Below, piece by piece: positions 32,860 to 50,010 of a stretch of DNA of 64,000 bases. The position numbers and the translations under genes are program-made. The notes beneath the pieces are model-generated. The model was not told where the DNA came from. It saw only the letters and a program-made list of their open reading frames with translations, and ran no database searches. How positions within the stretch are numbered: position 1 is the stretch's first letter; the number at the start of each line of letters is the position of its first letter. Source of the DNA: a virus; the IMG/VR virus record IMGVR_UViG_3300045988_126669, positions 33,217 through 97,216 of that record. One strand, written 5' to 3'.

Positions 32860-33035
32860 AAACGTTGCTCGGCTCGCTGGCGGTAGTGGCGAGCCGAGTT
32901 TTATAAAAATCAGCAGTTTGCACAAATTTCTCGCCAAAACTTCGTCAAAGCGCACAATCGTCAAAATACCCGAAACTACGCCATCACATTTGTGTAAAAT
33001 GACTATTGACAATCCAGTAGCCATGTGCTATACTT
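32860..33035 (+). promoter_or_regulatory. module copy 0: GC hairpin (ctcggctcgc..gcgagccgag + TTTTAT), TTTGCACAAATTT box, then a TTGACA/TATACT promoter
   Basis: Shares hairpin + U-run, the ...TTTGCACAAATTTC... box and ...CAATCC/-10 with the copies at 36.4, 38.6, 40.6, 42.9, 45.2, 47.7 and 49.9 kb. Confidence 0.5.
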
Positions 33036-33066
33036 GTATCATCAAAAAGAAAGAGGTAAATCAACT

Positions 33067-33438
33067 ATGAAAACTATTATCAATTCTTTTATCAAGGTTG
33101 TCTTCATCATTCTTCCTCTTGTTGTTATTTTAGCTATTTCCGCGCTCAAAACTCCCGAGGCTATGGCTTGTGAGGAAGCGCCCCAGTCCTACGACCTCTC
33201 GGTCATTGAGAATTGGTGTGGTGCAGGCACGGAACGCGGAAGTATTCGTTTCGTCGGTGCAGAGGTCTACGCACGCGAGGGTGATACCCTGACGCTCATT
33301 GACGAGCAGGGCAATCTGTGGGACGTGGAAGCACTCAACATTGATGACAACGACTTCTTGCTCTTGTGGATTAACGACAATGACACTGATACTGTGGAAG
33401 ATGATACAATTATTAAGGTATGGAGAGAGGCTTATTAA
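33067..33438 (+). CDS. secreted/membrane-anchored small protein (123 aa, N-terminal signal/TM)
   Basis: Promoter TTGACA 33006 / TATACT 33029. AAAGAAAGAGG RBS. TAA stop. Confidence 0.55.
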   Translation: MKTIINSFIKVVFIILPLVVILAISALKTPEAMACEEAPQSYDLSVIENWCGAGTERGSIRFVGAEVYAREGDTLTLIDEQGNLWDVEALNIDDNDFLLLWINDNDTDTVEDDTIIKVWREAY

Positions 33439-33567
33439 GTCTCTCTCTTTCTTGCGGATCGGCGAAGATTGTTAAAAAATTAACAAGCAGAAAAGAGTAA
33501 AAAAGGTCTTGACAAATGTGCGGTAATGTGCTACAATGTAGATACAATAAGAAAGGGGAATACTCAA

Positions 33568-33858
33568 ATGACTAATCAGGATTTTTACAAGGCTCTCAAA
33601 GCAGAAAAGGAACGGTTAATGAACGAAAGCAAGCAGGCGTTCCGCGACTGTCAGGTTAAGCGTGGTGAGATGTCGAGGGCATGGCACGAGGTAGACGCGC
33701 TCGAACAGGCAAACAAGTTTGGCACACAGGAACTCAGCGACGCGTATGATGACTACGAGGAAGCCAGCCACGCAAGTATGTTAGCAGACAACTACCTCGA
33801 TGACATTGATGAAGCCATTGATAAGATAAATGAGCTGATAAGTCTTTACGCAGAATAA
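33568..33858 (+). CDS. hypothetical small protein (96 aa)
   Basis: TTGACA 33509-17-TACAAT 33532. GAAAGGGGAA RBS. Confidence 0.55.
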   Translation: MTNQDFYKALKAEKERLMNESKQAFRDCQVKRGEMSRAWHEVDALEQANKFGTQELSDAYDDYEEASHASMLADNYLDDIDEAIDKINELISLYAE

Positions 33859-33989
33859 GGGAGCAGTAATGCTCCCTTCCTAACGGCGTAGATTGTTAAA
33901 AAATTAACAAAGATTTTTTTCAAAAAGGTCTTGACAAATCAGTTAGAATGTGGTATTCTATAATCACAAAAAGGAAAGGGGAATGAAAA

Positions 33990-34199
33990 ATGATTTACGG
34001 CATTGTTTATTACACTAAGGGCGGTCAGGGCTATCTCTTCCAGCAGGCATTCGAGGAACAGCGCGCTATGGAGATTGCAGGTAAGATGAACGACTTACTT
34101 GCGACAGGTGCTACAATGTATAATGACAAGTCCTATGGCAAGCTCGACTTGCGGAATGTCGAGTATTTCACAGTTGAACCCAGTAGCGAAATGTATTAA
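33990..34199 (+). CDS. hypothetical small protein (69 aa)
   Basis: Own TTGACAA-N17-TATAAT promoter and an AAAGGAAAGGGG RBS. Confidence 0.55.
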   Translation: MIYGIVYYTKGGQGYLFQQAFEEQRAMEIAGKMNDLLATGATMYNDKSYGKLDLRNVEYFTVEPSSEMY

Positions 34200-34382
34200 G
34201 GGCGGGAGCGGGCTTCCCGCTCTTTCTCTTGCACCGTGGAGCGCGTGTAGGGCGTCCCAGCCCGAACTTTACCACAGTAAAGCGTTAAAGCAAAATTTTT
34301 TCCATTTTTTGCCAAAAACCACTTGACATTCCTATCCCGAAATGCTATAATAGTATCATCAAAGGAAAGGGGAATACAACAA

Positions 34383-34601
34383 ATGACTATCGAACAGATT
34401 ATGGAGACTTACAGCAAGGGCTATGACGTGATGATTGATGATGGATTCAACACTTGGACTCCCAGCGGGAACGATGAATGGGACGCATTAGATGAGTTTG
34501 GGTGGACTTGCACGAACAAGGAAGTCAATGAAGCGGGCATTAAGGGCATCGAAGTCTTACCGGAGAAAATCGTATTTGTCAAAGTTGGAAAAGAACTGTA
34601 A
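34383..34601 (+). CDS. hypothetical small protein (72 aa)
   Basis: Own promoter (ACTTGACA..TATAAT) and RBS. TAA. Confidence 0.55.
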   Translation: MTIEQIMETYSKGYDVMIDDGFNTWTPSGNDEWDALDEFGWTCTNKEVNEAGIKGIEVLPEKIVFVKVGKEL

Positions 34602-34681
34602 AAAAAATAAAAAAGGGACTTGACAAAAGCCCCTTTGTTTGGTATAATGAATACATCAAAAGAAAGAAAGAGGTAAATCAA

Positions 34682-34804
34682 ATGTCTACTCATGATGGTC
34701 TTGTTCTTCTCGCTATCTATGTTGGTGTTATCGGCGCGGGTGCGCTCATCGAATACATGGAGCACCGCGTAAAGAGAGCGATTCGCCATAGAAAGAGAAG
34801 TTGA
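34682..34804 (+). CDS. 40-aa single-pass membrane micro-protein
   Basis: Own promoter GACTTGACAAAAG..TATAAT and an AAGAGG RBS. TGA. Confidence 0.45.
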   Translation: MSTHDGLVLLAIYVGVIGAGALIEYMEHRVKRAIRHRKRS

Positions 34805-34912
34805 AAAACTTCTCTTTTTTTTTGAAAAAAACACTTGACATTCTTTGCGGTCTGTGGTATTATAATATCAGAAAGGGAAAGGAAAATCCCAAACACCAGA
34901 AAGGTTAATTCA

Positions 34913-35074
34913 ATGATTACTATCAAGACTCTTCTCGACGGCGTTCTTCCTGTCAAGCCCCTGGCCTATGTCCTCGGCGATGACTGGACGTATCTTTACT
35001 CCGACACCTATAAGGGTGTGGAGTTCGATGTCCACGCCTGCATGAATGGCGAGGTCGTCGCGGTGTTAAATTAA
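34913..35074 (+). CDS. hypothetical 53-aa protein
   Basis: Own promoter and RBS, then terminator 35073-35100. Confidence 0.5.
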   Translation: MITIKTLLDGVLPVKPLAYVLGDDWTYLYSDTYKGVEFDVHACMNGEVVAVLN

Positions 35075-35100
35075 GGGCTGAAAAGCCCTTAATTTTTTTT
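35073..35100 (+). terminator. intrinsic terminator aagggctgaaaagccctt + T9
   Basis: Perfect hairpin plus a U-run. Near-identical copies at 35338-35368 and 35691-35717. Confidence 0.65.
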
Positions 35101-35171
35101 ATAAAAACCCTTGACAAATCCAGAAGTAAGTGCTATACTATAATTACAGTAAAGAAAGGGGAAAACAAAAG

Positions 35172-35333
35172 ATGAAATACAGAGTTTACACCGAAGATAA
35201 TTACAGCACTCGCCTTGGCTACTATCTGCCGACTTACTTTAAGACTAAGAAAGAAGCGCAGGCGTATGCAAAGACCCTGACGAAGCCCGCGACCATTGAG
35301 CGGAAATTAGTCAATACGTGGGTCAAGTGCTAA
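35172..35333 (+). CDS. hypothetical 53-aa basic protein
   Basis: Own promoter CCCTTGACAAATCC..TATACT, an RBS and a terminator. Confidence 0.5.
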   Translation: MKYRVYTEDNYSTRLGYYLPTYFKTKKEAQAYAKTLTKPATIERKLVNTWVKC

Positions 35334-35437
35334 GAATAAGGGCTGAAAAAAGCCCTTATTTTTTTTTATAAAAACCCTTGACAAATCCAAAAGCAGATGG
35401 TATAATGTAAATACAATAAAGGAAGGGGATAAAAACC

Positions 35438-35692
35438 ATGACTACTTACAACATTCTTACTATTGGCACTTCTTCTGTTCCGAAGCTCGCGGGCAAATTC
35501 AACATCGCGGACACTGAAAACTTTCTCGACCGGTTAGAGGAAACGCTTTACATTCTCTTTGAATTAGAGCCGAAGTCCCGCGAATGGAGACGCGAATTTC
35601 TCAAACATCTTTCAGCGGACTTCACCTATCACTTTTGTGAAGATTCTCGCGTTGAAAAGTTAGGCAACAACATTATTGTTTATGAGAAATAA
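35438..35692 (+). CDS. hypothetical protein (84 aa)
   Basis: Own promoter, RBS and terminator. Confidence 0.55.
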   Translation: MTTYNILTIGTSSVPKLAGKFNIADTENFLDRLEETLYILFELEPKSREWRREFLKHLSADFTYHFCEDSRVEKLGNNIIVYEK

Positions 35693-35797
35693 GGGCGGAA
35701 ACGCCCTTATTTTTTTTCAAACTTTTTTCAAAAAAACTATTGACAAATCCCGAATCTATGGTATAATAAGAATATAAAAGGAAAGGGGATAAACCAA

Positions 35798-35989
35798 ATG
35801 TTATTTAATGTTTCTATCAACTACTACAACTACAAGGCAAGCGATGTATTCTATTATCGCCATGAAATTCCGGTGTTCGGGCGGGAAAACGCTTGTATCC
35901 TTGCAAAGAAGTTCATCGACGCGGACAACGTTGTTTCGGTCGATGTTATCGACGCACTGACCGGCGAAGTCATCGAGAGTTTGAACTAA
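35798..35989 (+). CDS. hypothetical protein (63 aa)
   Basis: Own promoter CTATTGACAAATCC..TATAAT and terminator 35993-36030. Confidence 0.55.
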   Translation: MLFNVSINYYNYKASDVFYYRHEIPVFGRENACILAKKFIDADNVVSVDVIDALTGEVIESLN

Positions 35990-36120
35990 AAAAAACTCGG
36001 CAGGATATACAAAATCCTGCCGAGTTTTTATACATTTTGCCTATTGACTTTTATTATAGCTCATGTTATACTATAATTGTTCCAAGGGGAACGACATTAA
36101 AAACGAAAGAGGTTGACAAA

Positions 36121-36360
36121 ATGACTTTGGGCATGGTTAAAAATGTGATTGGTCTGGTAAAAGGCGCACTGATGTTCTATGAGGGGAACGGCATTGAAGT
36201 GATAAATGAAAACACTTGCGGGCGCTATCTCAAAGACCGCAAAGGTCGCATGACTCTGAATGGTGAGGTTTTGGGCGTAAGCGAAGAATGGGTGCTGGGA
36301 TTGCCTGTCAGCGGTTTGAAAGCCAAAGATGATGTTCTTATCGTTTATGTTGACGGTTAA
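36121..36360 (+). CDS. hypothetical protein (79 aa)
   Basis: Promoter TTGACTTTTATTATAGCTCATGTTATACT. RBS GAAAGAGG. Terminator 36370-36405. Confidence 0.5.
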   Translation: MTLGMVKNVIGLVKGALMFYEGNGIEVINENTCGRYLKDRKGRMTLNGEVLGVSEEWVLGLPVSGLKAKDDVLIVYVDG

Positions 36361-36410
36361 AAAATAAAAATGAAAATCTCCCCAAAAATGGGGAGATTTT
36401 TTTGTGCATT

Positions 36411-36570
36411 TTACCTATTGACAATTTCAAAACTTTGTGGTATAATCGGCCGGCGCGCGAACGGACCTGGCGCGCCGAGTTTTTGTCAATAGGCAGATTC
36501 AACAAATTTTTGGGGCAAATTTTTGTGCAAAGTGTCAATAGACAGAATCCCGAATCGGTGCTATACTATA
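36411..36570 (+). promoter_or_regulatory. module copy 1: IR-flanked promoter (TTGACA 36418 / TATAAT 36441), GC hairpin 36447-36479 + U-run, TTTTTGTGCAAAG box, then promoter P2 (TAGACA 36539 / TATACT 36562)
   Basis: The 13-bp inverted repeat tgcctattgacaa / ttgtcaataggca brackets the first promoter and the hairpin. Confidence 0.6.
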
Positions 36571-36619
36571 ATCACAGTAAGGGAAGGAAAACCTACCAAA
36601 CCGGAAAGGGATTTACAAC

Positions 36620-36928
36620 ATGATTAACATTCGTTCTATTCTCAAACTCGCTGAAAATGACGGCCTGACTCTCAAATATGGCAAGAAAGTCAACTACAAG
36701 TCCGGCTGGCAGGTCGCTACCAACGGCGTTGAATGTAAGACCGCCCGCGAAGCTATTAACGCGGTTAAGGACTTCGGCGGAAACTGCGGTGTATGGCTTG
36801 CGAACGGCATCTATTATGTTGACAAGTCCAAGAGAGTGCAGACCAAAAAGCAGGCGCTTGAAATTGGCAAGGCGTGCAATCAAATCAGCGTATATGGCTG
36901 GGCGCGCGGGAATCTGGCCTACTGCTAA
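36620..36928 (+). CDS. hypothetical protein (102 aa)
   Basis: Driven by the module-1 promoter P2. TAA. Confidence 0.55.
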   Translation: MINIRSILKLAENDGLTLKYGKKVNYKSGWQVATNGVECKTAREAINAVKDFGGNCGVWLANGIYYVDKSKRVQTKKQALEIGKACNQISVYGWARGNLAYC

Positions 36929-37005
36929 AAAAAATTGCATATAGGGCTTGACAAAACAAGCCCTATATGCTACAATAAAAACATCAAAGGAAAGGGAGAA
37001 ACACC

Positions 37006-37278
37006 ATGGAAATTAAATATGCTTATGAAATGACGCGCAAAGCCGAAGAAGTCCGCAAAGAAATCCAAGCTAAAAATAATGCCCTCGCGCGTGCGTTTAT
37101 CGGAGACCACATCATGCCGGAAATTGAGCGTGTGGCAGGAACGGGAGAAACACTTTACGAGTGTTCTCTTGCTTCATTAAATGACAAGGGCGTCAGGCAG
37201 GCTTGCAAAGATATTATGCAGAATTATGGCTATAAAGCCAGCTACATTGACAACGTTCTTTCGATCTATTGGGGATAA
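37006..37278 (+). CDS. hypothetical protein (90 aa)
   Basis: Own promoter GGGCTTGACAAAAC..TACAAT. RBS AAAGGGAG. Confidence 0.55.
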   Translation: MEIKYAYEMTRKAEEVRKEIQAKNNALARAFIGDHIMPEIERVAGTGETLYECSLASLNDKGVRQACKDIMQNYGYKASYIDNVLSIYWG

Positions 37279-37379
37279 ATAAAGAGGGAAAATTTTTCCC
37301 TCTTTTTTCCAAAAAGCCCTTGACAAATTCAGAAACAGATGCTATAATAACAATACAATACAGGAAAGGGAATGTTATT

Positions 37380-37742
37380 ATGATGAACTTCGAAACTTAT
37401 AGTCTTTTGAGAAAGTGCCTTGATAATGGTACTTTCACCGGAATGGACGTGTTTCAGGCGGAACGGGCTTGCCAGAAATTCGAGGAAGCCCAGGAAGCGC
37501 GGAAACTGAAACAGGAAATCCGCAACACCATGATGAAAAACATGATGCTCGATGTTCTCTCAAAGGCGGAAAAGCCCCTGTGCCCTACGGAAATCCAGTT
37601 TATTCTTTACCGTGAGACCGGCAAAGAATATCCTTGCGCCACCGTTGCATGGTATTGCGGTCATCTTTGCTGGATTGACAGAAAGTTGACCTACACCAAA
37701 AAGGGAAGCCGGAGCTACTACTCCATTAGAAAAGAAAATTGA
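37380..37742 (+). CDS. hypothetical protein (120 aa)
   Basis: Own promoter CCCTTGACAAATTC..TATAAT. RBS GGAAAGGG. Confidence 0.5.
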   Translation: MMNFETYSLLRKCLDNGTFTGMDVFQAERACQKFEEAQEARKLKQEIRNTMMKNMMLDVLSKAEKPLCPTEIQFILYRETGKEYPCATVAWYCGHLCWIDRKLTYTKKGSRSYYSIRKEN

Positions 37743-37819
37743 AAAAAATAAGAAAAAGGGCTTGACAAAAAGCCCTTTTTCTGCTATACTTAATGTATCA
37801 AAGGAAAGGGGAATAAAAC

Positions 37820-37891
37820 AATGGAATGTCCTTATTGCGATGGAAAGTGCGGAACACACGCTCAATGCGTTAAATGCGGAAAGGGGAAATA
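37820..37891 (+). CDS. 23-aa zinc-ribbon micro-protein (CxxC..CxxC)
   Basis: Own promoter GGGCTTGACAAAAAG..TATACT. RBS AGGAAAGGGG. Confidence 0.4.
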
Positions 37892-37894
37892 AAA

Positions 37895-38251
37895 ATGGGA
37901 ACAGAATTCTTAATTGTTGGCGGAATTTTTAGTGCAGTCCTTGCGCTGTTTGTTTGCCTTGTCTGTTGGTGCAACATGGACAAGTCTCACCCAATAGTCA
38001 GACTGTTAGTTGGTCTTCTCATTTCGTGCGCTCTTGGCTACGGTATGACGGGCGCAATAGTCGCGGAACACAATGCCGATAAAAAGGCATGGAATGACGG
38101 CTATTGCTCCATTTGCGGAAATGAAATGGAATTTGTAAATGCTTCTCACGGTCGGCATGGAACAGTTTTTTACTATTGGTATTGCGATGAGTGCGGACAT
38201 ACGTTAGAGCTAACCTCTAACTTTGCAAAGGGGGAAACAAATAATGAATGA
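37895..38251 (+). CDS. membrane protein with a C-terminal zinc ribbon (118 aa)
   Basis: RBS AAAGGGGA. N-terminal TM helices. Confidence 0.5.
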   Translation: MGTEFLIVGGIFSAVLALFVCLVCWCNMDKSHPIVRLLVGLLISCALGYGMTGAIVAEHNADKKAWNDGYCSICGNEMEFVNASHGRHGTVFYYWYCDECGHTLELTSNFAKGETNNE

Positions 38252-38450
38252 AAAACCTATCCCGCAGGCTTTGAGAGAACAGGCAGACGCCCTTGAAAAG
38301 TTGGCTCAAAGAATTGCAAAAGAAAGTCAGAAATTTCCAGACGCGGAAGACTACAAAGACGGCGGAGAACTTGCGAACGCCTTGTTTGCGATTCAGTCCA
38401 AACTCCGCTATGAATACTTCTGGATTGCGGAAGCCATGTGGGACGTATAA
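38244..38450 (+). CDS. hypothetical protein (68 aa)
   Basis: RBS AAGGGGGAAACAAATAATG and terminator 38455-38490. Confidence 0.5.
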   Translation: MNEKPIPQALREQADALEKLAQRIAKESQKFPDAEDYKDGGELANALFAIQSKLRYEYFWIAEAMWDV

Positions 38451-38535
38451 TTTTCAGGCGAGATTTAATTATCTCGCCTGAAATTTTTTTTTCAAAAAAC
38501 TATTGACAAACTCGCCCCGTTGTGGTATTATAATC

Positions 38536-38604
38536 ATGTCAAGAGGAAATGGTAAGCCTCTTGAAGTAGTAAACAAATTTTTCATACTATGGTTTGCGCG
38601 GTAG
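38536..38604 (+). CDS. leaderless micro-ORF MSRGNGKPLEVVNKFFILWFAR (could instead be an sRNA)
   Basis: Promoter TTGACA 38503; the ATG lies 4-5 nt after the -10 box. Shares the ATGTCA(A/G)GAGG start with the units at 45383, 47924, 48052 and 48158. Confidence 0.3.
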   Translation: MSRGNGKPLEVVNKFFILWFAR

Positions 38605-38636
38605 CCGATAATTACCGCGCCCTTTCTATTTCATTT

Positions 38637-38820
38637 TTGTTAAAATTTTAACAATGGTTGTTCGGCCGGGCGCGCACGGCCCACGCGCCCGGAATTTCCA
38701 TTATATCACAGGGCCAGCAATTTGTCAAGCAAAAAGTTGCAAAAATTTGCACAAATTATTTTTCCCAATTTTGTGCGATCCGTCAATAGACAAATCTCTA
38801 AGGGTGTGTTATATTATAAT
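38637..38820 (+). promoter_or_regulatory. module copy 2: palindromic TTGTTAAAATTTTAACAA, GC hairpin 38666-38692 + AATTTCCATTATATCAC, AAATTTGCACAAATT box, then P2 (TAGACA 38787)
   Basis: Conserved blocks shared with the copies at 42.9, 45.2 and 47.7 kb. Confidence 0.55.
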
Positions 38821-38854
38821 TGTTCCAAGGGGACAGAAAGATGAGGTAAATAAA

Positions 38855-39061
38855 ATGACTAATTACAACATTCACTCTTTTATCAAGACCCAGCTTCTCT
38901 ATGCCGAGCAGATGCCCAGCGACGCCGAGCTTTTCAAGCACAATGCTTATGGTGCAGTTCAGTGGGAGTTATATCGCACGAATGACTCGACTCTTGAAAC
39001 ACAGTGGGAAATCATATATGCCCCCAAATTCGACGCTATCATCAGAAATTATCATTTCTGA
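38855..39061 (+). CDS. hypothetical protein (68 aa)
   Basis: Driven by module-2 P2. RBS GATGAGG. Confidence 0.5.
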   Translation: MTNYNIHSFIKTQLLYAEQMPSDAELFKHNAYGAVQWELYRTNDSTLETQWEIIYAPKFDAIIRNYHF

Positions 39062-40566: not shown

Positions 40567-40610
40567 TGAAAAATCACCCAATTTGGGTGATTTTTTTTTG
40601 TTTAATTTTA

Positions 40611-40765
40611 CTATTGACAAAGTTCCTTAAATGTGATAAAATTGTCGGCGCGCGGACGACTGTGGCGCGCCGAGTTTTTTGTCAAGAGGTAAGTTCAACA
40701 AATTTTCGCACGAATTTTTGTGTAAAATGCCAATAGACAAAAATCCTATAATGTGGTAAGATGTA
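40611..40765 (+). promoter_or_regulatory. module copy 3: promoter (TTGACA 40615 / TAAAAT 40638), GC hairpin 40647-40673 + U6, TTTTCGCACGAATTTTT box, then P2 (TAGACA 40735)
   Basis: Same architecture as copy 1. Confidence 0.55.
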
Positions 40766-42844: not shown

Positions 42845-42885
42845 AATTTGAGGTGAAAATTCACCTCATTTTTTTTAGTTATTTT

Positions 42886-43071
42886 GCCTATTGACAAAAA
42901 TCCAATAGTGAGATAAAATGGCCGGCCGTTTGCGCCTGCCACGGCCGGAATTTCCATTATACCACCATCTCAGCAATTTGTCAATAGGAAATTTAGCCAA
43001 AAGTCCAACTAATTATTTTCCCGAATTTGGGTATTTTACCAATAGACAAGAATGTAATAATCTGCTATACT
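42886..43071 (+). promoter_or_regulatory. module copy 4: IR-flanked promoter (TTGACA 42891 / TAAAAT 42914), GC hairpin 42920-42948 + AATTTCCATTATACC, then P2 (TAGACA 43043 / TATACT 43066)
   Basis: cctattgacaa...ttgtcaatagg inverted repeat as in copy 1. Confidence 0.55.
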
Positions 43072-43102
43072 ATGGATACAGTAAAGAAAGGGGATACAAA
43101 CA

Positions 43103-43597: not shown

Positions 43598-43891
43598 ATG
43601 AGTAAACCGAAAACTTATGAGTATGAGGGAAGAACCTTTGAGGTCAAGGCATACAGCGGAGATGAGTATGGGGCTTTCTTATTCATCTATGTCTATGAAG
43701 TTATCCGCCCTACCCGCAAATTCTTTGGTCGAACTCGGTTCTTTTGCGAGGACTTTGTTCTTCTTGACCAATATCTTTCTATTGATGACGCAGTAAAAGA
43801 TGTCATCGCACGGGGTCTTTGGCAGGAAGAATATAAAAAGTTTGCCGAAGATAAATGGAAAGAATGGACAAATAAAGTGAGAAATTGCTAA
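43598..43891 (+). CDS. hypothetical protein (97 aa)
   Basis: Own promoter ACTTGACAAGC..TATAAT. Confidence 0.55.
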   Translation: MSKPKTYEYEGRTFEVKAYSGDEYGAFLFIYVYEVIRPTRKFFGRTRFFCEDFVLLDQYLSIDDAVKDVIARGLWQEEYKKFAEDKWKEWTNKVRNC

Positions 43892-43959
43892 AATTTCTCT
43901 TGACAACCGCGCAGACGTATGGTATAATACAGATACAGTAAAGGAAAGGGGTAATACCT

Positions 43960-44460
43960 ATGAAAATCACTTACATCAAGTCCCACGTTGTGGCTACTCG
44001 ACGTTCCATCAACTTTGACATGGACGGCACTATCGCTGACCTCTACGGCGTCAAGGATTGGCTTGCACTTCTCCGTTCGGAAAATCCTAAGCCCTATCGA
44101 ACTGCTGTTCCCATGTGCAATATGGCTGAACTGAATGAGGTTTGCGAACTTCTCCGCGCCGAGGGCTGGGAAATCAACATCATCACTTGGCTTTCCAAAG
44201 ATTCGAGCGAGGAATACAAAAACCTCGTGCGTGAAGCAAAGCGCGCGTGGCTTGAAGAACAGGGCTTCCACTATGACCACTTCCACGGCGTCCAGTATGG
44301 CGCGACTAAGGCCGACAGCGTGCGCGACCGCTATGACGTGTCCATCTTGGTTGACGATAATGAAAAGGTTCGGAATGGTTGGCACTTGGGCGAAACCATT
44401 GACCCGACCGCAGTAAACATTATCGAAAAACTTTCGGAACTTTTGGAGAAAAGGGCTTGA
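43960..44460 (+). CDS. HAD-superfamily 5'(3')-deoxyribonucleotidase-like phosphatase (166 aa)
   Basis: Motif I FDMDGTIAD, and a later ILVDDN motif. Own promoter CTCTTGACAACC..TATAAT. Confidence 0.55.
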   Translation: MKITYIKSHVVATRRSINFDMDGTIADLYGVKDWLALLRSENPKPYRTAVPMCNMAELNEVCELLRAEGWEINIITWLSKDSSEEYKNLVREAKRAWLEEQGFHYDHFHGVQYGATKADSVRDRYDVSILVDDNEKVRNGWHLGETIDPTAVNIIEKLSELLEKRA

Positions 44461-44515
44461 CAAAGCCCTACTCCAATGGTATAATAAATACATCAAATGA
44501 AAAGGAGAAAATAAA

Positions 44516-44722
44516 ATGGTTATTCTTTTAATTCTGCTGTCTCTCGCAGTTTCGTTCCTGCTTACCTCTGGTCTGGTTTGGCTTCTCTGCTGGCTTCTTC
44601 CCGCCCTCGGTATCACCGCAATCGGCACTTTCGTCATCGTGTTCTCGTGGAAGCTGGCACTCGCAATTTGGATTATTCTCGTGCTTTTGCAGTCCATCTT
44701 CTCGGTCGGTTCAAAGAGGTGA
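44516..44722 (+). CDS. 68-aa membrane protein
   Basis: Own promoter. RBS AAAGGAGAAAA. Confidence 0.5.
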   Translation: MVILLILLSLAVSFLLTSGLVWLLCWLLPALGITAIGTFVIVFSWKLALAIWIILVLLQSIFSVGSKR

Positions 44723-44727
44723 TAAAA

Positions 44728-44871
44728 ATGATGCCTTATTTTTGGGTTGATATTGGAATCATCGGAAAAGTAGTTGAAAAGATTGATGACGACCTTTTCA
44801 TCTATGAAACCGTTATCACCAAAGAACGCGCGACCGTGACCGCAAAATGGGTCAAGGAACATCTGCTTTAA
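44728..44871 (+). CDS. 47-aa hypothetical protein
   Basis: RBS AGAGGTGATAAAAATG. Confidence 0.4.
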   Translation: MMPYFWVDIGIIGKVVEKIDDDLFIYETVITKERATVTAKWVKEHLL

Positions 44872-44887
44872 GAGAGGAGAAATAAAA

Positions 44888-45145
44888 ATGAAAGTAAATT
44901 TTGGCACTAAGGGTCAGCTCCAAATTATCAACATTCTCAGCGGTGGCACGTTCACCACTCTGCGCTCCAACGGTAGCGGTATGGGAATGTATCTCAAAAT
45001 TGACAGCAACAACAACACGCCGTTTGTCCGGTCGAGAGGTTCGCAGTATTGCTACGCGGTGAATCTTGAAACGGGTCAGGTTCGCGAGTTTTCGCGCGAC
45101 AAGATGGTGACGCCGGTCAAGACCGAGGTCAATGTGATTGGCTAA
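44888..45145 (+). CDS. hypothetical protein (85 aa)
   Basis: RBS AGAGGAGAAATAAAAATG. Terminator 45150-45181. Confidence 0.55.
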   Translation: MKVNFGTKGQLQIINILSGGTFTTLRSNGSGMGMYLKIDSNNNTPFVRSRGSQYCYAVNLETGQVREFSRDKMVTPVKTEVNVIG

Positions 45146-45190
45146 AAGAAAATCTCCCCAAAAATGGGGAGATTTTTTTTGTTTACTTTG

Positions 45191-45377
45191 ACTATTGACA
45201 AAATCATCTGAATGTGATATAATGGGCCGGCCGTTTCCGCGCGCTACGGCCGGAATTTACCATTATACACCCCGCCAGCATTTTTGTCAAGAGAAATTTT
45301 GCACAAATTTCAATTTTATTTTTTCCCGTTATTTAGCTATTTTACCAATAGACAAATCAGTATCAATCTGCTATACT
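45191..45377 (+). promoter_or_regulatory. module copy 5: promoter (TTGACA 45195 / TATAAT 45218), GC hairpin 45224-45252 + AATTTACCATTATAC, TTTTGCACAAATTTC box, then P2 (TAGACA 45349 / TATACT 45372)
   Basis: Conserved blocks. Confidence 0.55.
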
Positions 45378-45382
45378 ACATA

Positions 45383-45496
45383 ATGTCAGGAGGAAAGAGT
45401 AAGATCTTCGGAAAGGCAGTTCCCTTGACCATTATACCAAAATCCGACGGAATGTTCCAAGCGTGGCGTGCCGAACAAACTTTCAAAAAAGTTTGA
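45383..45496 (+). CDS. leaderless micro-ORF MSGGKSKIFGKAVPLTIIPKSDGMFQAWRAEQTFKKV (37 aa)
   Basis: The ATG is 5 nt after the P2 -10 box and there is no SD. ATGTCAGGAGG family. Confidence 0.35.
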   Translation: MSGGKSKIFGKAVPLTIIPKSDGMFQAWRAEQTFKKV

Positions 45497-45564
45497 AAAA
45501 CCCCTTGACAAACCGTTCTACGTAGGGTATAATGAATACATCAAATGAGAGAGGTAAAAACAAG

Positions 45565-45594
45565 ATGACTTCTAATGCTCGCCCACCGCCTTAA
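45565..45594 (+). CDS. leader micro-ORF MTSNARPPP*
   Basis: Promoter CCCTTGACAAACC..TATAAT. RBS GAGAGG. Poly-Pro then stop. Confidence 0.35.
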   Translation: MTSNARPPP

Positions 45595-45655
45595 AAACTA
45601 ATGGTTTATTGAATTGGATTGGATTAAGATTATAGATAAAGGTAGGTATAAACAA

Positions 45656-45688
45656 GATGTATAGTAATAAACCTCGCGACCGCCCCTA
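45656..45688 (+). CDS. leader micro-ORF MYSNKPRDRP*
   Basis: RBS AAAGGTAGG. Ends Arg-Pro-stop (TnaC-like). Confidence 0.35.
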
Positions 45689-45787
45689 AAAAAAATTGCA
45701 AAAACTATTGACAGCCTGCTCCGCCTATGATATAATAACTACATTAAAGACAAGGGCAGTCTTAAAAACCAGAAAGGAATTGATACT

Positions 45788-46168
45788 ATGGCTACTTCTA
45801 CTTCTACCACTAAGAAGCTCACCAAGCGCGACCGTTTTGAGGCTCTGCTCAAAATGAGCGAGGTTCAGGCAAATCCTGATATGGTGGCGTTCATCGAGCA
45901 TGAGATTGAACTGCTCGCCAAGAAGAACGCGGGCGACAAGAAGCCCACGGCCAAGCAGATGGAGAATGACGCTGTGAAGCAGGTCATTCTGGACGAGATG
46001 ACCGCGAACCCCGACAAGCTGTATACCGTAACCGACCTCATCAAGACCGTTCCCGAACTCGCGGAGTATACCAATCAGCGCGTTTCCGCTCTTCTGCGTC
46101 AGATGATTGACGCCGGTTCGGTTGTCAAGACGGTTGACAAGCGCAAGTCCTACTTCTCCCTCGCGTAA
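45788..46168 (+). CDS. hypothetical protein (126 aa), paralog of 48467..48844
   Basis: About 65% identity to the 48467 gene. Both carry the conserved GAAAGGAATTGATACTATG leader. Confidence 0.6.
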   Translation: MATSTSTTKKLTKRDRFEALLKMSEVQANPDMVAFIEHEIELLAKKNAGDKKPTAKQMENDAVKQVILDEMTANPDKLYTVTDLIKTVPELAEYTNQRVSALLRQMIDAGSVVKTVDKRKSYFSLA

Positions 46169-46310
46169 AGGAAAAAGGGCAGGGGATAAAAAAATCCCCT
46201 GCCCTGCAAAAAAAACTGTTGACAAACCAATAGCAAAGTGATATACTATGTATAGAGATTGAGAGAACGATGGTAAACCTCAATCTACTTTTCCAATAGG
46301 AGACGATAAA

Positions 46311-47087
46311 ATGGGTATTGATAGGCGCAAAAACTACGGCATTATGCTGGACACGGAAACCGCAAACACCATTCAGGACGGCGATAAGCTGGATATGTCA
46401 AATGTACTTCCCTACGACTTCGGCTGGGCGGTCATTGATTCCAAGGGAAATGTTTATGAAACTCATTCTTTTGTGAATCGCGACATTTTCTGCTACGAGC
46501 GCGACCTCATGCGGTCTGCCTACTACGCCGACAAGATTCCTCGCTACATTGAGGATATTCAAAACGGCACTCGCATTATGGCTGACCTTTACGAAATTCG
46601 TCTTGCGTTCTGCGAATGTGTCGAGCGCTACAACTGCTCTTTTGTGTGCGCTCATAATATGCGGTTCGACCTTAACGCCTGCAACAACGCGCAAAGATGG
46701 GACACGAAAAGCAAGTATCGCTATTTCTTCCCCTACGACCTCGAAATTTGGGACACGTTGAAAATGGCGCGTCAGGTTATCGGTAAAATGCCTACTTACC
46801 GCGACTATTGCGAAAAGAACGGCTACAAGACCAAGAACGGACAGCTCCGTTTCACCGCAGAAATTCTCTATCGCTTTATCAGCGGTGAGGACAACTTTGA
46901 TGAATCCCACACGGGATTAGAAGATGTTCTCATTGAAGTTGAGATTCTGCGCTACTGCGTCCGACAGCACAAGGAAATGGACAAGTCCCTTTTCAAAACT
47001 CCCACGGTGAAGCGTCCCAAGCCTACCGAGTTTCAGCGTGCGCTCATGCGAAACATTAAGGAAAATCCTATGATAAACATGAGCTAA
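46311..47087 (+). CDS. DEDDh-family 3'-5' exonuclease (DnaQ/RNase T-like), 258 aa
   Basis: Exo I MLDTETAN, Exo II HNMRFDLN, Exo III SHTGLEDVLIEVEIL. The 5'UTR carries the conserved hairpin gattgagagaacgatggtaaacctcaatc. Confidence 0.7.
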   Translation: MGIDRRKNYGIMLDTETANTIQDGDKLDMSNVLPYDFGWAVIDSKGNVYETHSFVNRDIFCYERDLMRSAYYADKIPRYIEDIQNGTRIMADLYEIRLAFCECVERYNCSFVCAHNMRFDLNACNNAQRWDTKSKYRYFFPYDLEIWDTLKMARQVIGKMPTYRDYCEKNGYKTKNGQLRFTAEILYRFISGEDNFDESHTGLEDVLIEVEILRYCVRQHKEMDKSLFKTPTVKRPKPTEFQRALMRNIKENPMINMS

Positions 47088-47166
47088 AAAAAAATAGGGG
47101 AATAGGGCTTGACAAGTCCTATTCCCTATGGTATAATCAATGTATCAAATGAAAGAGGTGTTTCAC

Positions 47167-47445
47167 ATGAACGCTAAACAAGTCCTTTTTGTAGTCCCTG
47201 ATGACAATGACCCTCACATGGGCATTTTAATCGACCATGACTATATTATCTGCGCCGAGTGCGGTGGCGTCTTTGAAGCTGATGAAGTTTTCATTATTCA
47301 GACCTACGACTCTTGGGTAAATTTTGAAGATGAAATTGCGGACGAGCTTGACCTGCTGACTGCAAAAGACATTGGCAAGGAGCTGGATAGCAAGGAAAAG
47401 TTCGGCTGGGACGCGTGGAAAGAAGCCATTAAGGGGGAGTTTTGA
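47167..47445 (+). CDS. hypothetical protein (92 aa, CxxC)
   Basis: Own promoter GGGCTTGACAAGTCC..TATAAT. RBS AAGAGG. Confidence 0.5.
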   Translation: MNAKQVLFVVPDDNDPHMGILIDHDYIICAECGGVFEADEVFIIQTYDSWVNFEDEIADELDLLTAKDIGKELDSKEKFGWDAWKEAIKGEF

Positions 47446-47447
47446 AA

Positions 47448-47687
47448 ATGGATTTAGATTTTAATTACATGACTGACGAGGAACTGGACGAACTCATTCT
47501 CCAAATACAAGAAGCCAGAAAAGCCCGCGCAGAAAGCCGAAAGATTGACCTTTGGAACAATGTTCGGCGGTCGGTTCAGAATTACATCATGGAATGTGGA
47601 ATGATTGAACTCTTTACCGAGGACTACAATTCCACGCTGGACGCTGATTCTTTCAGGATTCCCGGCGAGATTAACCTGCTGGACTAA
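47448..47687 (+). CDS. hypothetical protein (79 aa)
   Basis: RBS AAGGGGGAG. Terminator 47695-47725. Confidence 0.5.
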   Translation: MDLDFNYMTDEELDELILQIQEARKARAESRKIDLWNNVRRSVQNYIMECGMIELFTEDYNSTLDADSFRIPGEINLLD

Positions 47688-47730
47688 AATAAAAAACTAC
47701 CCAAAATTGGGTAGTTTTTTTTGTCTATTT

Positions 47731-47919
47731 TGTCTATTGACAAACGCGGATTTTTGTGATAAAATGGGCGGACCGCCAGCGTACGCAGCGGTCCGAATTT
47801 TCCATTATATCACGCCCCGCCAATTTTGTCAAGAGAAAAATTGCACAAAAGTGAAGAAAATTTTTTCCCGTAATTTGGTTATTTTGTCAATTGCAATCTA
47901 CGGGCAATCTGCTATAATA
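47731..47919 (+). promoter_or_regulatory. module copy 6: promoter (TTGACA 47736 / TAAAAT 47759), GC hairpin 47765-47794 + AATTTTCCATTATATCAC, AAATTGCACAAAAG box, then P2 (TTGCAA 47891 / TATAAT 47914)
   Basis: Conserved blocks. Confidence 0.55.
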
Positions 47920-47923
47920 GATA

Positions 47924-48022
47924 ATGTCAGGAGGGAACAGTGAATTGCCGAACGGCTTCGCTGATGGGTGTGATAACTCGGTAACTGACCCGTTTTCAAA
48001 GAAATTTGAAATTCCCTCTTGA
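47924..48022 (+). CDS. leaderless micro-ORF MSGGNSELPNGFADGCDNSVTDPFSKKFEIPS
   Basis: The ATG is 5 nt after the -10 box. Confidence 0.3.
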   Translation: MSGGNSELPNGFADGCDNSVTDPFSKKFEIPS

Positions 48023-48051
48023 CAAGTAGTGCGAAAAGTGCTACAATAGAT

Positions 48052-48126
48052 AATGTCAAGAGGACAGAGCCGTTGTACGCTCAATTGTGAGATAAGAACT
48101 CTGAAAAAAATTTATAAAACCTCTTG
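48052..48126 (+). CDS. leaderless micro-ORF MSRGQSRCTLNCEIRTLKKIYKTS
   Basis: TTGACA 48018-17-TACAAT 48041, with the ATG 5 nt after the -10 box. Confidence 0.3.
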
Positions 48127-48157
48127 ACAAACCCCAGCGAGTGTGCTACAATAGAAA

Positions 48158-48277
48158 ATGTCGAGAGGGAGTAACCCAAGAAATCCGAGGGCGCGCGACT
48201 TTGAGAAAGTATAGGAAGTAAACATAATACACCACGTTGTAAAGCCAAACGTTGAACGCGAAAGTGAGTTTGATTGA
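48158..48277 (+). CDS. leaderless micro-ORF MSRGSNPRNPRARDFEKV(TAG)EVNIIHHVVKPNVERESEFD
   Basis: TTGACA 48124-17-TACAAT 48147, with the ATG 5 nt after the -10 box. Has an in-frame TAG. Confidence 0.25.
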
Positions 48278-48466
48278 ACCAACTATCCTTGACGCGGTTT
48301 TCCGCTGACAAATAGATTGAATCAACAAACAATAAATTATCCGTCAGGTCGGGGTAGTAATTCGTGTGAAAAGTTTGCGAAACCTCTTGACAAACACTCC
48401 AAAGTGTGGTATACTCAATAATATCAAAAGGGTAGCGACCTACCGCCAAAGAAAGGAATTGATACT

Positions 48467-48844
48467 ATGTCTACTTCTACTGTTAAGAAGCTCACCAAGC
48501 GCGACCGTTTCGAGGCTCTGCTCAAACTGTCCGAGGTTCAGGCTGACCCTGCTATGGTTGAGTTTATCAACCACGAAATCGACCTGCTGTCCCGCAAGAA
48601 CGCCGGTGACAAGAAGCCGACCGCGAATCAGATTGCCAACGACGGCTACAAGGACATTATCTTTGCCGAGCTGTCCGCGAATCCTGACAAGCTGTATACC
48701 GTGACCGAACTCATCAAGAACGTGGACGGTCTGGGCGACCTCACCAATCAGCGCGTTTCCGCTCTTCTGCGTCAGATGATTGAAGCGAACGGCGTCGAGA
48801 AGATTGTGGACAAGCGCAAGTCCTACTTCCGTCTCGCCCACTGA
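48467..48844 (+). CDS. hypothetical protein (125 aa), paralog of 45788..46168
   Basis: Promoter CTCTTGACAAACAC..TATACT. Terminator 48850-48890. Confidence 0.6.
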   Translation: MSTSTVKKLTKRDRFEALLKLSEVQADPAMVEFINHEIDLLSRKNAGDKKPTANQIANDGYKDIIFAELSANPDKLYTVTELIKNVDGLGDLTNQRVSALLRQMIEANGVEKIVDKRKSYFRLAH

Positions 48845-48944
48845 TTCAGGGGGAGCGCCTGAAAAAAATCAGGCGCTCCCAAAAATTTCTCTTGACATTT
48901 GCTGACGGCGGTGTTATAATCATACTTGAAAGGGGGCAAAAGAA

Positions 48945-49352
48945 ATGCCTAAAATGAGTAAAAAAGACTTTCAGGCAAAGATTGATAATCTGATGAAAAA
49001 GTTAGATTGTACTGCCGAGGAAGCAAAAGAAATTCTCATGGACGATGATGACATTGACCATGGAATCGCCAAGGACTTTGACCTGTCCGCGGAAAAGCTC
49101 AAAGAAGCTAACAAGTATTCTAAAACCGGAACACGCAAAGCGCCGACCGCTTATAAGTTTGAGAAGCGACAGCGCAAGGAAAACCCCACAAAACGCTCGA
49201 TTATTGCTGAACTTGCGACTTTTTTGCGAGAAAACAGCGAAAATGCGTGCGAAAATGTGGAAATCACGAACATTGAGCGCATGATTGCGTTCCATGTGGG
49301 CGAAAATGACTATGAATTGACCCTGATTCAGAAGCGAAAGCCCAAAAATTGA
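48945..49352 (+). CDS. hypothetical protein (135 aa)
   Basis: Promoter TCTCTTGACATTTG..TATAAT. RBS AAAGGGGG. Terminator 49355-49398. Confidence 0.55.
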   Translation: MPKMSKKDFQAKIDNLMKKLDCTAEEAKEILMDDDDIDHGIAKDFDLSAEKLKEANKYSKTGTRKAPTAYKFEKRQRKENPTKRSIIAELATFLRENSENACENVEITNIERMIAFHVGENDYELTLIQKRKPKN

Positions 49353-49475
49353 CAAAAAAGGGTGAAAAACCGCTGAAAAATGCGGTTTTTCACCCAAAAA
49401 CAAGTCAAAAAATGCAAAAAATAATGGTTGAGAGAACGATGGTAAACCTCAATCAATAGAGAGGATTTTGTGCCG

Positions 49476-49886
49476 ATGGAAGAAATTACTATTAAGCTAC
49501 GCCGATTTAAGGACGGCAGACCGCCCGTTTCAATGGAGTTTATGCCTAATTGTGGCGAGAATCTGAAAGACGTTCAAGCGGTCTACTTTTTCAAGTTTTA
49601 CAACAACAACAAACTTGAATTTAACAAGGTAGGCACTTCCGCAAAAGACGTTGTAGGGCGTTTGCGTGATGAAATTGGCGAGTATGCAAAAAAGTATGCT
49701 ATCACGCGCGTTGAAATTCATCGAATCCGTTCTTGCGGGGATTATCCCGCCGAGGGCGCGGAAAGCGCGTTGCGTGCGGAACTGATTAGACGCTATCCCA
49801 AAGCGTTCCGCAAGAATGACCGCTTTTTTAATGTGGACATTAACCCCACGGTTTTCGATGAAATTGTAAACGCATTTCTTGCATAA
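49476..49886 (+). CDS. hypothetical protein (136 aa)
   Basis: The 5'UTR has the conserved hairpin gttgagagaacgatggtaaacctcaatc (identical core to the one at 46258). Terminator 49895-49930. Confidence 0.5.
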   Translation: MEEITIKLRRFKDGRPPVSMEFMPNCGENLKDVQAVYFFKFYNNNKLEFNKVGTSAKDVVGRLRDEIGEYAKKYAITRVEIHRIRSCGDYPAEGAESALRAELIRRYPKAFRKNDRFFNVDINPTVFDEIVNAFLA

Positions 49887-49937
49887 ATATTCAATCAGCA
49901 GGTTGACTAAAACCTGCTGATTTTTTTTGTGCATTTT

Positions 49938-50010
49938 GCCTATTGACACCGATCGGAAAATGTGGTATAATGGCCGGGCCGTCGCGGGACGTGCCGGCCC
50001 GATTTCCCGA
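49938..50010 (+). promoter_or_regulatory. module copy 7 (first half only): promoter (TTGACA 49943 / TATAAT 49966) + GC hairpin 49972-50001, flanked by CCGATCGG repeats
   Basis: Same promoter-hairpin arrangement. The downstream part diverges (CATATG inverted repeats). Confidence 0.45.

Follow-up and report, generated by a model that had tools for sequence, protein, structure and literature searches.

Why would a phage place a compact arrangement of promoters and a GC-rich hairpin repeatedly between its small early genes? The question is raised by a 64,000-nucleotide stretch of viral DNA (positions 33,217 to 97,216 of IMG/VR record IMGVR_UViG_3300045988_126669; hereafter the window), in which eight such sites, numbered as modules 0 to 7, lie at about 32.87, 36.45, 38.67, 40.65, 42.92, 45.23, 47.77 and 49.98 kb. 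An initial annotation described them as eight ~180-bp copies, repeated with ~2.2-kb periodicity, of a strong promoter, a hairpin, a palindromic operator and a second promoter, and proposed that they act as checkpoints of the Q/put/6S type. Here we show that each module is a compound promoter/terminator joint of the host sigma-A type between cassettes of small orphan early genes. Our confidence in this anatomy is high, and that in the function, which we infer from it, is modest.

Architecture of the eight modules

The modules lie between 32 and 50 kb, in an early island where about 45 small genes are encoded on the + strand. Its GC content is 39–45%, compared with 28–30% in its flanks and in the late genes. 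Promoter-like sites of the sigma-70 type number 101 in the island (38.7±6.0 expected) and terminator-like sites 42 (18.8±4.2 expected), and almost every small gene is preceded by its own TTGACA-17-TATAAT promoter. All eight sites contain a GC hairpin (−16 to −24 kcal/mol) and, downstream of it, a promoter of a single class (P2) positioned before a ribosome-binding site and gene, so that the second promoter originally proposed to drive the next block is present throughout. A promoter upstream of the hairpin (P1, near-consensus TTGACA-17-TA(T/A)AAT), which had been assigned to every copy, is found at six sites (modules 1, 3, 4, 5, 6 and 7) and is missing from modules 0 and 2. As in the first description, each composite cassette directly follows the terminator of the previous block (T0); this terminator is usually bidirectional. 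The typical hairpin is 27 nt long and GC-rich, with a stem of 8–9 bp and a loop of 9–11 nt.

The minus strand explains most of the remaining sequence. When both strands of the island are scanned, the only strong minus-strand promoters are four 12/12 consensus matches inside modules 2, 4, 5 and 6 (38728→38700, 42984→42956, 45290→45262 and 47832→47804). Read on this strand, AATTTCCATTATATCAC…TTTGTCAAGAG and the "palindromic box" together form a full-consensus, extended −10 promoter (P1′) with a T-tract upstream element. The conserved AATTTCCATTATATCAC, reported initially as a sequence that follows the hairpin, is the −10 and discriminator of P1′ and not an RNA motif; the arm TTGTCAAGAG/TAGG, described as part of an inverted repeat around P1, is its −35; and the AAATTTGCACAAATTT box, taken for an operator, consists of phased T-tracts upstream of that −35. 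These tracts span about 60–100 bp and form back-to-back upstream elements for P1′ and P2. P1, P1′ and P2 alike score 10–12 of 12, with a TG-extended −10 and phased T-tracts upstream, and all three are preceded by TTTTGTNNATTTTGCCWATWGACA, a motif of the island that the rest of the window lacks.

In the full form of the module (P1→hairpin←P1′; modules 4, 5 and 6) the two −10 hexamers are 36–38 bp apart and the hairpin fills the gap, a convergent pattern that is present at 3 loci in the window versus 0.00 in 100 shuffles. The stem begins 2–4 nt past the P1 −10 and not at about +1, as had been reported, which puts the expected P1 start inside the 5′ arm; the P1′ −10 lies 7–8 nt from the stem. Module 2 is a P1′-only form, in which the hairpin and P1′ are present and P1 is missing. 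Modules 1 and 3 represent a short form composed of P1, the hairpin, a run of five or six U residues (U5–6) and a P1′ −35 remnant without its −10. The right arm (P1′) of module 7 is degenerate, and module 0 is a plain terminator followed by P2, with neither P1 nor P1′. The eight sites are where they were first placed, and the arrangement is far above chance, but the copies are heterogeneous in structure. Moreover, the U-run reported to follow the hairpin is seen in modules 0, 1 and 3 only.

Successive modules are separated by 3.5, 2.25, 1.95, 2.3, 2.3, 2.55 and 2.2 kb, and by 1.5–3.1 kb, with cassette indels, in relatives. With a range of 1.95–3.5 kb in the window, the repeat is regular rather than periodic. 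Tandem block duplication as the source of the ~2.2-kb spacing was rejected, because the island holds only one paralogous gene pair (45788-46168 and 48467-48844).

Selection on hairpin pairing

Stem sequences are unlike between copies and pairing is retained, as the initial annotation had noted, and the same is true among orthologues. In alignments of the orthologues of module 5 (alignment A2) and module 6 (alignment A3), the flanks are 94–95% conserved and the hairpin 83–88%; 100% of cells pair, and two pairs in each set have changed on both sides (C:G↔U:A, and C:G↔A:U↔G:C). Shuffled alignments match the covariation score in 4/500 and 0/500 trials, respectively, and controls with slid partners collapse. 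Across 34 family sequences, 99.3% of cells are paired versus 74.5% in shuffles and 69 cells show double changes versus 24.4±3.3, the restriction of this set to stems of at least 7 bp inflating the first comparison but not the second. The covariation check on aligned hairpins thus comes out positive for orthologues and family alike, and pairing of the hairpin is under selection, as first proposed. Terminators covary in the same way, however, so that covariation by itself does not prove a trans-acting RNA.

Two features make the hairpin look unlike a terminator. Its loop of 9–11 nt compares with 3–6 nt in the neighboring T0 terminators, and the loop is semi-conserved, with CG at loop positions 4–5 and YG at 8–9. 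Among 39 distinct 27-nt hairpins (loci L002-L118 and the window), C12 is found in 34, G13 in 36, Y16 in 38 and G17 in 26, and stem positions G3, C6 and G7 are almost invariant across the family. The hallmark of an intrinsic terminator, a GC stem-loop followed directly by a U-tract, is seen only in modules 0, 1 and 3; read in either direction, the hairpins of four of the seven real modules fall short of a canonical terminator. Most family copies likewise have no U-tract on either strand; where P1 is present, the 9 nt past the stem contain on average 3.0 T on the + strand and 3.6 T on the − strand, with tails such as AAATTTCC / CCATTATA. A role as bidirectional intrinsic terminator was rejected for most copies because of the missing U-tract. 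We also dropped the idea that selection favors TAAAAT as the P1 −10 because it would give the leftward RNA a U-tract: TAAAAT occurs in 25/61 P1 versus 4/113 P1′ sequences, but in a biased sampling, and short forms without P1′ have it equally.

These observations bear directly on the original model, in which P1 and the hairpin form a promoter-proximal terminator or RNA element through which a Q-, N- or put-like factor gates successive blocks. The short form of modules 1 and 3 and their relatives (P1, hairpin, U5–6) is what such a model would predict, and the island is rich in terminators. Nevertheless, we regard the model as very unlikely. The U-run is missing after the hairpin in four of seven modules; a ~35-nt terminated P1 RNA is predicted for the short form, which is itself conserved in relatives. 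No two copies have the same hairpin sequence, and it varies among orthologues too, which argues against a site for a single sequence-specific Q/N/put factor, whereas the nut, put or qut sites of one factor keep their sequence. In addition, the P1 start is expected within the stem, the conserved "tail" and "operator" are an antisense promoter, read-through is unneeded when every small gene has its own promoter, and no antiterminator-like protein is seen among the 20 early open reading frames (ORFs) scanned against Pfam and PHROG. The checkpoint proposal gains no support from this analysis, the features that define such checkpoints being absent.

Conservation and plasticity in related viruses

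Scanning IMG/VR with an exact pattern for convergent consensus promoters 30–46 bp apart gives at least 118 loci, among which are about 48 distinct GC-rich cores of 36–39 bp built like the window modules. About 40 related viral contigs share this geometry, in which the 27-nt hairpin is separated from the P1 −10 by 2–4 nt and from the P1′ −10 by 7–8 nt; several of these contigs are close relatives whose flanks are the same. Scanned under relaxed conditions, the loci fetched yield 113 distinct units of hairpin and P1′, with 27 nt as the commonest hairpin length and TATAAT as the P1′ −10 in 99. No P1 is detected on the left of 52 of the 113, although some of these are mirror-image (P1-side) or spurious detections. 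Clear modules without P1 are five in contig L087, about four in L100 (whose fifth, at 4001, has P1) and module 2 of the window; such units run from T0 through the hairpin, P1′, T-tracts that include a TCCCGWA motif, and P2 to the ribosome-binding site and gene. The short form is also present in several related contigs; here the P1′ −10 has been lost, turning the hairpin into a U-run terminator for P1. Because units without P1 exist and the short form recurs, the conserved core is T0–hairpin–P1′–P2, with P1 as an optional part.

Among 120 bacterial-genome matches to the P1′-type promoter pattern, only two have the hairpin, both of them on Clostridia/Eubacteriales contigs from metagenome-assembled genomes. 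The hairpin is therefore no generic companion of such promoters and, since the matches are mostly ordinary promoters, the scan does not point to a firm host. Enterococcus phage EF1, the nearest cultured relative by protein similarity (L119, MF001358.1), has an equivalent + strand small-gene island at 12500-20800 with about 13 consensus promoters; it contains two strong antisense promoters (locus 16064-16092 and ~18016) and no tight promoter–hairpin–promoter unit.

Cassette-sized differences between relatives end at promoter repeats or module edges. L049, L067 and L030 lack the segment 43601–43920, which holds one gene, and 45 nt overlap at the junction; L114, L062, L067 and L057 lack 42594–42873; 39756–41597, including module 3, is replaced in L062; and in L114 the sequence past the P2 of module 3 is replaced. 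Such plasticity recalls the promoter-early stem-loop (PeSL) cassettes of T4-type phages (Arbiol et al. 2010, PMC2839356; Comeau et al. 2014, PMC4122927), and the modules might be mainly recombination linkers in the PeSL sense, with P1′ and the hairpin as by-products of an inverted promoter duplication that have no regulatory role. The positions of the indels, the presence of two copies of one promoter class as inverted-repeat arms and the existence of a partial deletion form are all consistent with this idea. We consider it improbable, however, given that P1′ is the best-conserved part of the unit (TATAAT in 99/113; invariant in A2 and A3) and is retained where P1 is missing, that the spacing from hairpin to promoter is tight, and that compensatory change maintains pairing.

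The appearance of terminal inverted repeats (CCTATTGACAA…TTGTCAATAGG) and the presence of multiple copies would also suit miniature inverted-repeat mobile elements with outward or inward promoters, similar to Correia elements. Yet the modules occupy syntenic positions in relatives, their internal sequence is unique to each copy, and they are confined to one orientation and one island. Neither target-site duplications nor identical copies at non-syntenic sites with target duplications are seen, and a mobile origin is hardly credible.

A possible mechanism for the joint

In every form of the module a strong promoter fires point-blank into the hairpin, the transcript encodes nothing, and P2 fronts the gene. 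On this basis we tentatively favor, with somewhat less than even confidence, a reading in which mutually exclusive convergent promoters and the hairpin constitute a buffer or insulator between T0 and P2, forming a PeSL-like joint. Given the usual distance of ~7 nt from −10 to start, the P1′ RNA would begin flush with the stem and the P1 RNA inside the 5′ arm, placing the two start sites ~23–26 bp apart. As open-complex footprints reach about +20, the two would overlap, so that only one of the promoters could be occupied at once. Whichever promoter fires would transcribe the hairpin first, yielding a short non-coding RNA. P1 of the short form would give an RNA of ~35 nt ending at the U-run, and P1′ an antisense RNA with the hairpin at its 5′ end and T0 at its 3′ end, ~105 nt long in modules 4–6. 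When folded, the predicted leftward RNAs of this length show a hairpin at the 5′ terminus, then a linker rich in A and U, and finally the T0 terminator in reverse with a U-tail. A parked or firing polymerase, through occupancy or collision, would together with the antisense RNA block or mark read-through from the previous block, and expression of the next block would rest on P2. The hairpin would then serve as the 5′-terminal stem-loop of these transcripts and, in the short form, as a terminator too. Moreover, the conserved ~180 bp may provide homologous joints for cassette gain, loss and swap, as proposed for PeSL.

Several points weigh against the insulator reading. The start sites are placed only by the usual distance past the −10, insulation is partly redundant with T0, and the paired fraction of the family hairpins is raised by the choice of stems. 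Modules with P1′ alone have a hairpin that lacks a U-tract and, often, a T0 that terminates weakly in the leftward direction, so that the 3′ end of the antisense RNA is uncertain. Nor does the reading account for the large loop with its semi-conserved CG and YG, for a hairpin that evolves faster than its flanks, or for the retention of P1 in the short form, where the transcript should terminate at once.

These last three features keep alive a rival explanation, doubtful in our view, in which the hairpin RNA is itself the product; the initial annotation had listed abundant decoy hairpin RNAs among its candidate roles. The modules would then give rise to abundant, short 5′-triphosphate GC hairpin RNAs, sense and/or antisense, that act in trans and diversify fast, either as decoys for a host protein or defence that recognizes hairpins or double-stranded RNA or as copy-specific antisense regulators. 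It fits this idea that each real module, in all three forms, directs at least one strong promoter into a hairpin with a non-coding transcript, and that the geometry is fixed at 27 nt with P1′ spaced for an RNA that starts flush with the stem. The semi-conserved loops, larger than those of the true terminators nearby, and compensatory evolution that outpaces flank divergence (0.83/0.88 for the hairpin versus 0.94/0.95 for the flanks) are in line with it too. Known RNA families, however, are not matched: Rfam gives 0 hits at the gathering threshold in the whole window and only sub-threshold, terminator-like matches in a permissive search of 32–51 kb. Trans base-pairing targets of the hairpins within the 64-kb window are limited to chance-level 10-mers. 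Furthermore, the stems share only a loose YSGSNCGY, which would leave a common protein partner with shape and two or three bases of the loop to recognize. It is unlikely that the units are dedicated genes for very short, highly expressed, fast-diversifying 5′-triphosphate GC hairpin RNAs that act in trans in host takeover, with possible roles as decoys for a host nuclease or defence that senses hairpins or double-stranded RNA, or as copy-specific antisense locks. If true, these genes would represent a new class of phage small RNA, located in promoter joints and common to a large clade of stop-codon-recoding gut phages.

Short non-coding transcripts can also prime replication, and transcript-dependent origins include T4 ori(uvsY) and ori(34) and the ori of lactococcal phage c2. 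A strong promoter that delivers a short, GC-rich, non-coding RNA next to a T-tract region of ~25% GC, which might unwind, could be such a transcription-activated origin or priming site. This seems highly improbable for seven copies in 18 kb that are restricted to the early island, have no iterons and adjoin genes other than replication genes.

The phage and its early island

The large ORFs of the window match virion and portal families, identifying it as phage DNA. Its nearest GenBank relatives, at the protein level only (39–47% identity), are Enterococcus phages EF1, EF5 and VRE9 and the gut phage phAss-1; nucleotide searches of GenBank phages with the region and with one module give zero matches. 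TAG is read as sense in the late and structural genes (53-31550, minus strand; for example 6578-14908). Opening TAG gives ORFs of 986, 1111 and 2776 aa, the last with 84 in-frame TAGs, and gene calls in the early island end at standard stops throughout. The phAss-1 group consists of recoded gut phages, with which this recoding agrees (PMC10607447). The module-bearing phage is a TAG-recoding gut siphophage of the group related to phAss-1 and EF1. A search of the DNA for tRNA and tmRNA genes found none.

No Pfam or PHROG match is obtained for 18 of the 20 early ORFs scanned. The early protein encoded at 42136-42588 (+) has an N-terminal MazE/AbrB-type (SpoVT) DNA-binding domain (Pfam E 3.5e-10; PHROG "antitoxin"). 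It is the sole evident DNA-binding candidate in the island for a possible role at the promoter regions with T-tracts.

Compared with the rest of the window, the island (32000-50200) is depleted of short palindromes. GATC occurs 7 times versus 43 expected (elsewhere in the window, 101 versus 131), GTAC 6 times versus 40 and, outside the hairpins, GGCC 10 times versus 33 and CCGG 21 times versus 42. The eight hairpins, although 1.2% of the island by length, account for 7/22 of its GGCC and 7/30 of its CCGG sites. This avoidance suggests an island that meets host restriction while still unprotected, like the first-step-transfer DNA of T5. The island also lies within ~7 kb of a contig end in at least 16 of about 38 module-bearing viral contigs, far more than the roughly 14% expected of uniform placement; it is near the contig end in L022, L024, L031, L037, L039, L069, L083, L084, L091 and L107 and near the contig start in L030/L074/L108, L081, L087, L098, L100 and L117. 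Either assemblies break at the repeats, or the island sits at or close to a terminal repeat or physical end of the genome, as it does in SPO1 and T5.

Coordinates of the module elements and of related features are collected in Table 1.

Table 1. Elements of the eight modules in the window (positions count from its first nucleotide).
Feature	Position	Strand	Remarks
Module 0 hairpin	32868..32898	+	GC hairpin and U-run; plain terminator of first transcription unit, no adjacent P1/P1′; −23.7 kcal/mol, z −4.4
Module 0 T-tract/GCAC upstream motif	32915..32929		Initially annotated as "box"
Module 0 P2	33006..33034	+	TTGACA-17-TATACT; before gene 33067-33438
Additional P2-class promoter	36044..36072	+	Just past terminator 35991-36029; no hairpin unit
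Module 1 T0	36373..36403		Bidirectional intrinsic terminator of preceding block
Module 1 P1	36418..36446	+	TTGACA-17-TATAAT, TG-extended
Module 1 hairpin	36451..36477		27-nt GC hairpin, then U5; short form
Module 1 P1′ −35 remnant	36483..36493	−	CCTATTGACAA on minus strand; −10 missing
Module 1 P2	36539..36567	+	TAGACA-17-TATACT; before gene 36620-36928
Module 2 hairpin	38666..38692		27-nt GC hairpin; no P1 on left side
Module 2 P1′	38700..38728	−	Leftward, 12/12 consensus with TG
Module 2 P1′ T-tract upstream element	38743..38757	−	Initially annotated as "box"
Module 2 P2	38787..38815	+	TAGACA-17-TATATT; before gene 38855-39061
Module 3 T0	40568..40599		Bidirectional terminator
Module 3 P1	40614..40642	+	TTGACA-17-TAAAAT
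Module 3 hairpin	40645..40673		GC hairpin, then U6; short form; orthologues in L114, L065
Module 3 P1′ −35 remnant	40679..40689	−	
Module 3 P2	40734..40762	+	Before gene 40793-41137
Module 4 T0	42849..42876		Terminator
Module 4 P1	42891..42919	+	TTGACA-17-TAAAAT
Module 4 hairpin	42922..42948		27-nt GC hairpin between convergent promoters
Module 4 P1′	42956..42984	−	Leftward, 12/12 consensus
Module 4 P2	43043..43071	+	Before gene 43103-43366
Module 5 T0	45149..45180		Bidirectional terminator
Module 5 P1	45195..45223	+	12/12 consensus
Module 5 hairpin	45227..45253		27-nt GC hairpin; orthologues with compensatory C:G↔U:A at two pairs
Module 5 P1′	45262..45290	−	Leftward, 12/12 consensus; predicted RNA ~105 nt to T0
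Module 5 P1′ T-tract upstream element	45294..45310	−	Initially annotated as "box"
Module 5 P2	45349..45377	+	Followed by ~400 nt without ORF
Module 6 T0	47691..47722		Bidirectional terminator
Module 6 P1	47737..47765	+	TTGACA-17-TAAAAT
Module 6 hairpin	47769..47795		27-nt GC hairpin; orthologues with two double-changed pairs, 100% pairing
Module 6 P1′	47804..47832	−	Leftward, 12/12 consensus
Module 6 P1′ T-tract upstream element	47836..47852	−	
Module 6 P2	47891..47918	+	TTGCAA-16-TATAAT; then repeated short promoter units before 48467
Module 7 T0	49893..49928		Terminator
Module 7 P1	49943..49971	+	12/12 consensus
Module 7 hairpin	49975..50001		GC hairpin; right-hand promoter degenerate
Module 7 P2-type promoter	50082..50110	+	TTGACT-17-TATAAT; preceded by TCCCGAAA motif

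For about 400 nt after the P2 of modules 5 and 6 there is no credible gene, only one 25-codon candidate with a TTG start (47945-48022). The stretches concerned (45378-45790 and 47919-48465) carry two or three further consensus promoters, each followed by the conserved leader (A)ATAATGTCARGAGGRA; the SD-like GGAGG near the 5′ end of this leader may be a 5′ stabilizer or the start of a tiny ORF. The paralogous genes noted above come next, one after each promoter array. Folding z-scores of −1.3 to +1.5 are not significant and give no indication of a structured non-coding RNA downstream of P2 in these two modules. A looser convergent pair is found at 45349-45460, where the P2 of module 5 faces a minus-strand site (45460→45431, TTGGAA-18-TATAAT with TG) across a 53-nt imperfect hairpin. 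Simple overlaps of terminator and promoter, about 40 in the window, have the −35 TTGACA in the loop of the preceding terminator and its T-run in the spacer, as in AGAAAAAGGGCTTGACAAAAAGCCCTTTTTCT; examples lie at 34612-34636, 36937-36970, 37751-37782 and 42593-42632. Upstream of module 0, ~270 nt (32600-32868) contain no gene in the call based on ribosome-binding sites, although unsupported ORFs exist (for example, 32695-32886 +). The region holds the TTTTTTCCCGAAAT motif also seen in modules, ends at the module 0 terminator and may be a non-coding early transcript.

Comparison with known systems

PeSL cassettes are the closest parallel. Like them, the modules are repeated ~100-bp composites in which a GC stem-loop is combined with an early promoter of host-type consensus and its AT-rich upstream tract, set between small orphan genes of a hyperplastic early region, where upstream transcription is terminated and then restarted. 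P1, P1′ and P2 are of the consensus sigma-70/sigma-A type with AT-rich upstream sequence, as expected of PeSL promoters, and the unmatched ORFs (18/20) and cassette indels in relatives agree with the orphan-gene and plasticity features. The stem-loop of a PeSL, however, lies between −35 and −10 or overlaps the −10, terminating upstream transcription (PMC2839356), whereas the module hairpin is downstream of the −10, at the start sites. It is the ~40 simple overlaps (e.g. 37751-37782 and 36937-36970) that closely match PeSL placement. The modules differ further in adding an inverted second promoter and a third promoter, and their carrier is a Firmicutes-type siphophage rather than a T4-like myovirus. 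Recombination between PeSL copies yields indels and mini-circles; the genome comparison here shows deletion junctions within promoter repeats (45-nt overlap, 43601/43920).

Convergent promoters with a hairpin-led RNA are also familiar from IS10/Tn10, in which the transcripts of pIN and pOUT overlap by a few tens of nucleotides at their 5′ ends. RNA-OUT, the short, stable RNA from the stronger promoter, begins with a hairpin and is antisense to the 5′ end of the other transcript. The modules likewise have face-to-face promoters and a short 5′ overlap, ~24–27 nt for the expected start sites (−10 gap 36–39 bp). In IS10, however, the overlap covers the ribosome-binding site of the transposase, whereas here it is the hairpin itself; the overlap region has no ribosome-binding site or ORF start, and the first gene lies 150–550 nt further to the right. 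The module unit is, moreover, repeated four to eight times per genome. The interference switches of coliphages P2 and 186 (PMC5001618, PMC6593788) also have face-to-face promoters a few tens of bp apart with mutual interference. They are, however, single lysis/lysogeny switches with known repressors in which both promoters express genes, whereas the leftward promoter of the modules expresses nothing and no repressor is identified.

The island as a whole resembles SPO1's module for host takeover (Stewart et al. 1998, via PMC6873191), which is described as many small early genes in short operons with very strong sigma-A promoters and ribosome-binding sites at the genome terminus. Many of the related contigs end in or near the island. 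As far as we could find, the SPO1 account describes no convergent promoter–hairpin unit.

With regard to antitermination, the lambda Q/qut–6S system has a −10-like pause element in the initial transcribed region and a Q-binding element in the promoter. HK022 put consists of two conserved stem-loops, and the put or nut sites of one factor share RNA sequence or structure. A strong promoter followed closely by a hairpin or terminator, as at lambda PR′–qut–6S and HK022 put, is common to both systems and the modules, and the short form should give a similarly tiny terminated RNA. The initial transcribed sequence of P1, however, is the GC stem (GGCCGGCCG…), with no TATAAT-like non-template element at +1 to +10. 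In contrast to put and nut, the module has a single variable hairpin, with stems and loops that differ in all eight copies and in orthologues; it is also present in many copies and includes an antisense promoter.

In the literature searched, including the phAss-1 paper, we find work on PeSL and on convergent promoters in general but no prior description of the promoter–hairpin–promoter unit. About 100 natural variants of a minimal convergent-promoter device are now available for work on transcriptional interference, 5′-hairpin RNA stability and polymerase recycling. If the insulator reading is correct, the modules constitute a conserved, compact punctuation of host-polymerase transcription of takeover genes, with head-on starts ~25 bp apart and, at every joint, a hairpin conserved in structure but free in sequence. 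The PeSL idea, in which regulatory cassettes are recombination joints as well, would then reach beyond T4-like phages and their Gram-negative hosts to uncultured siphophages of gut Clostridia that recode TAG.

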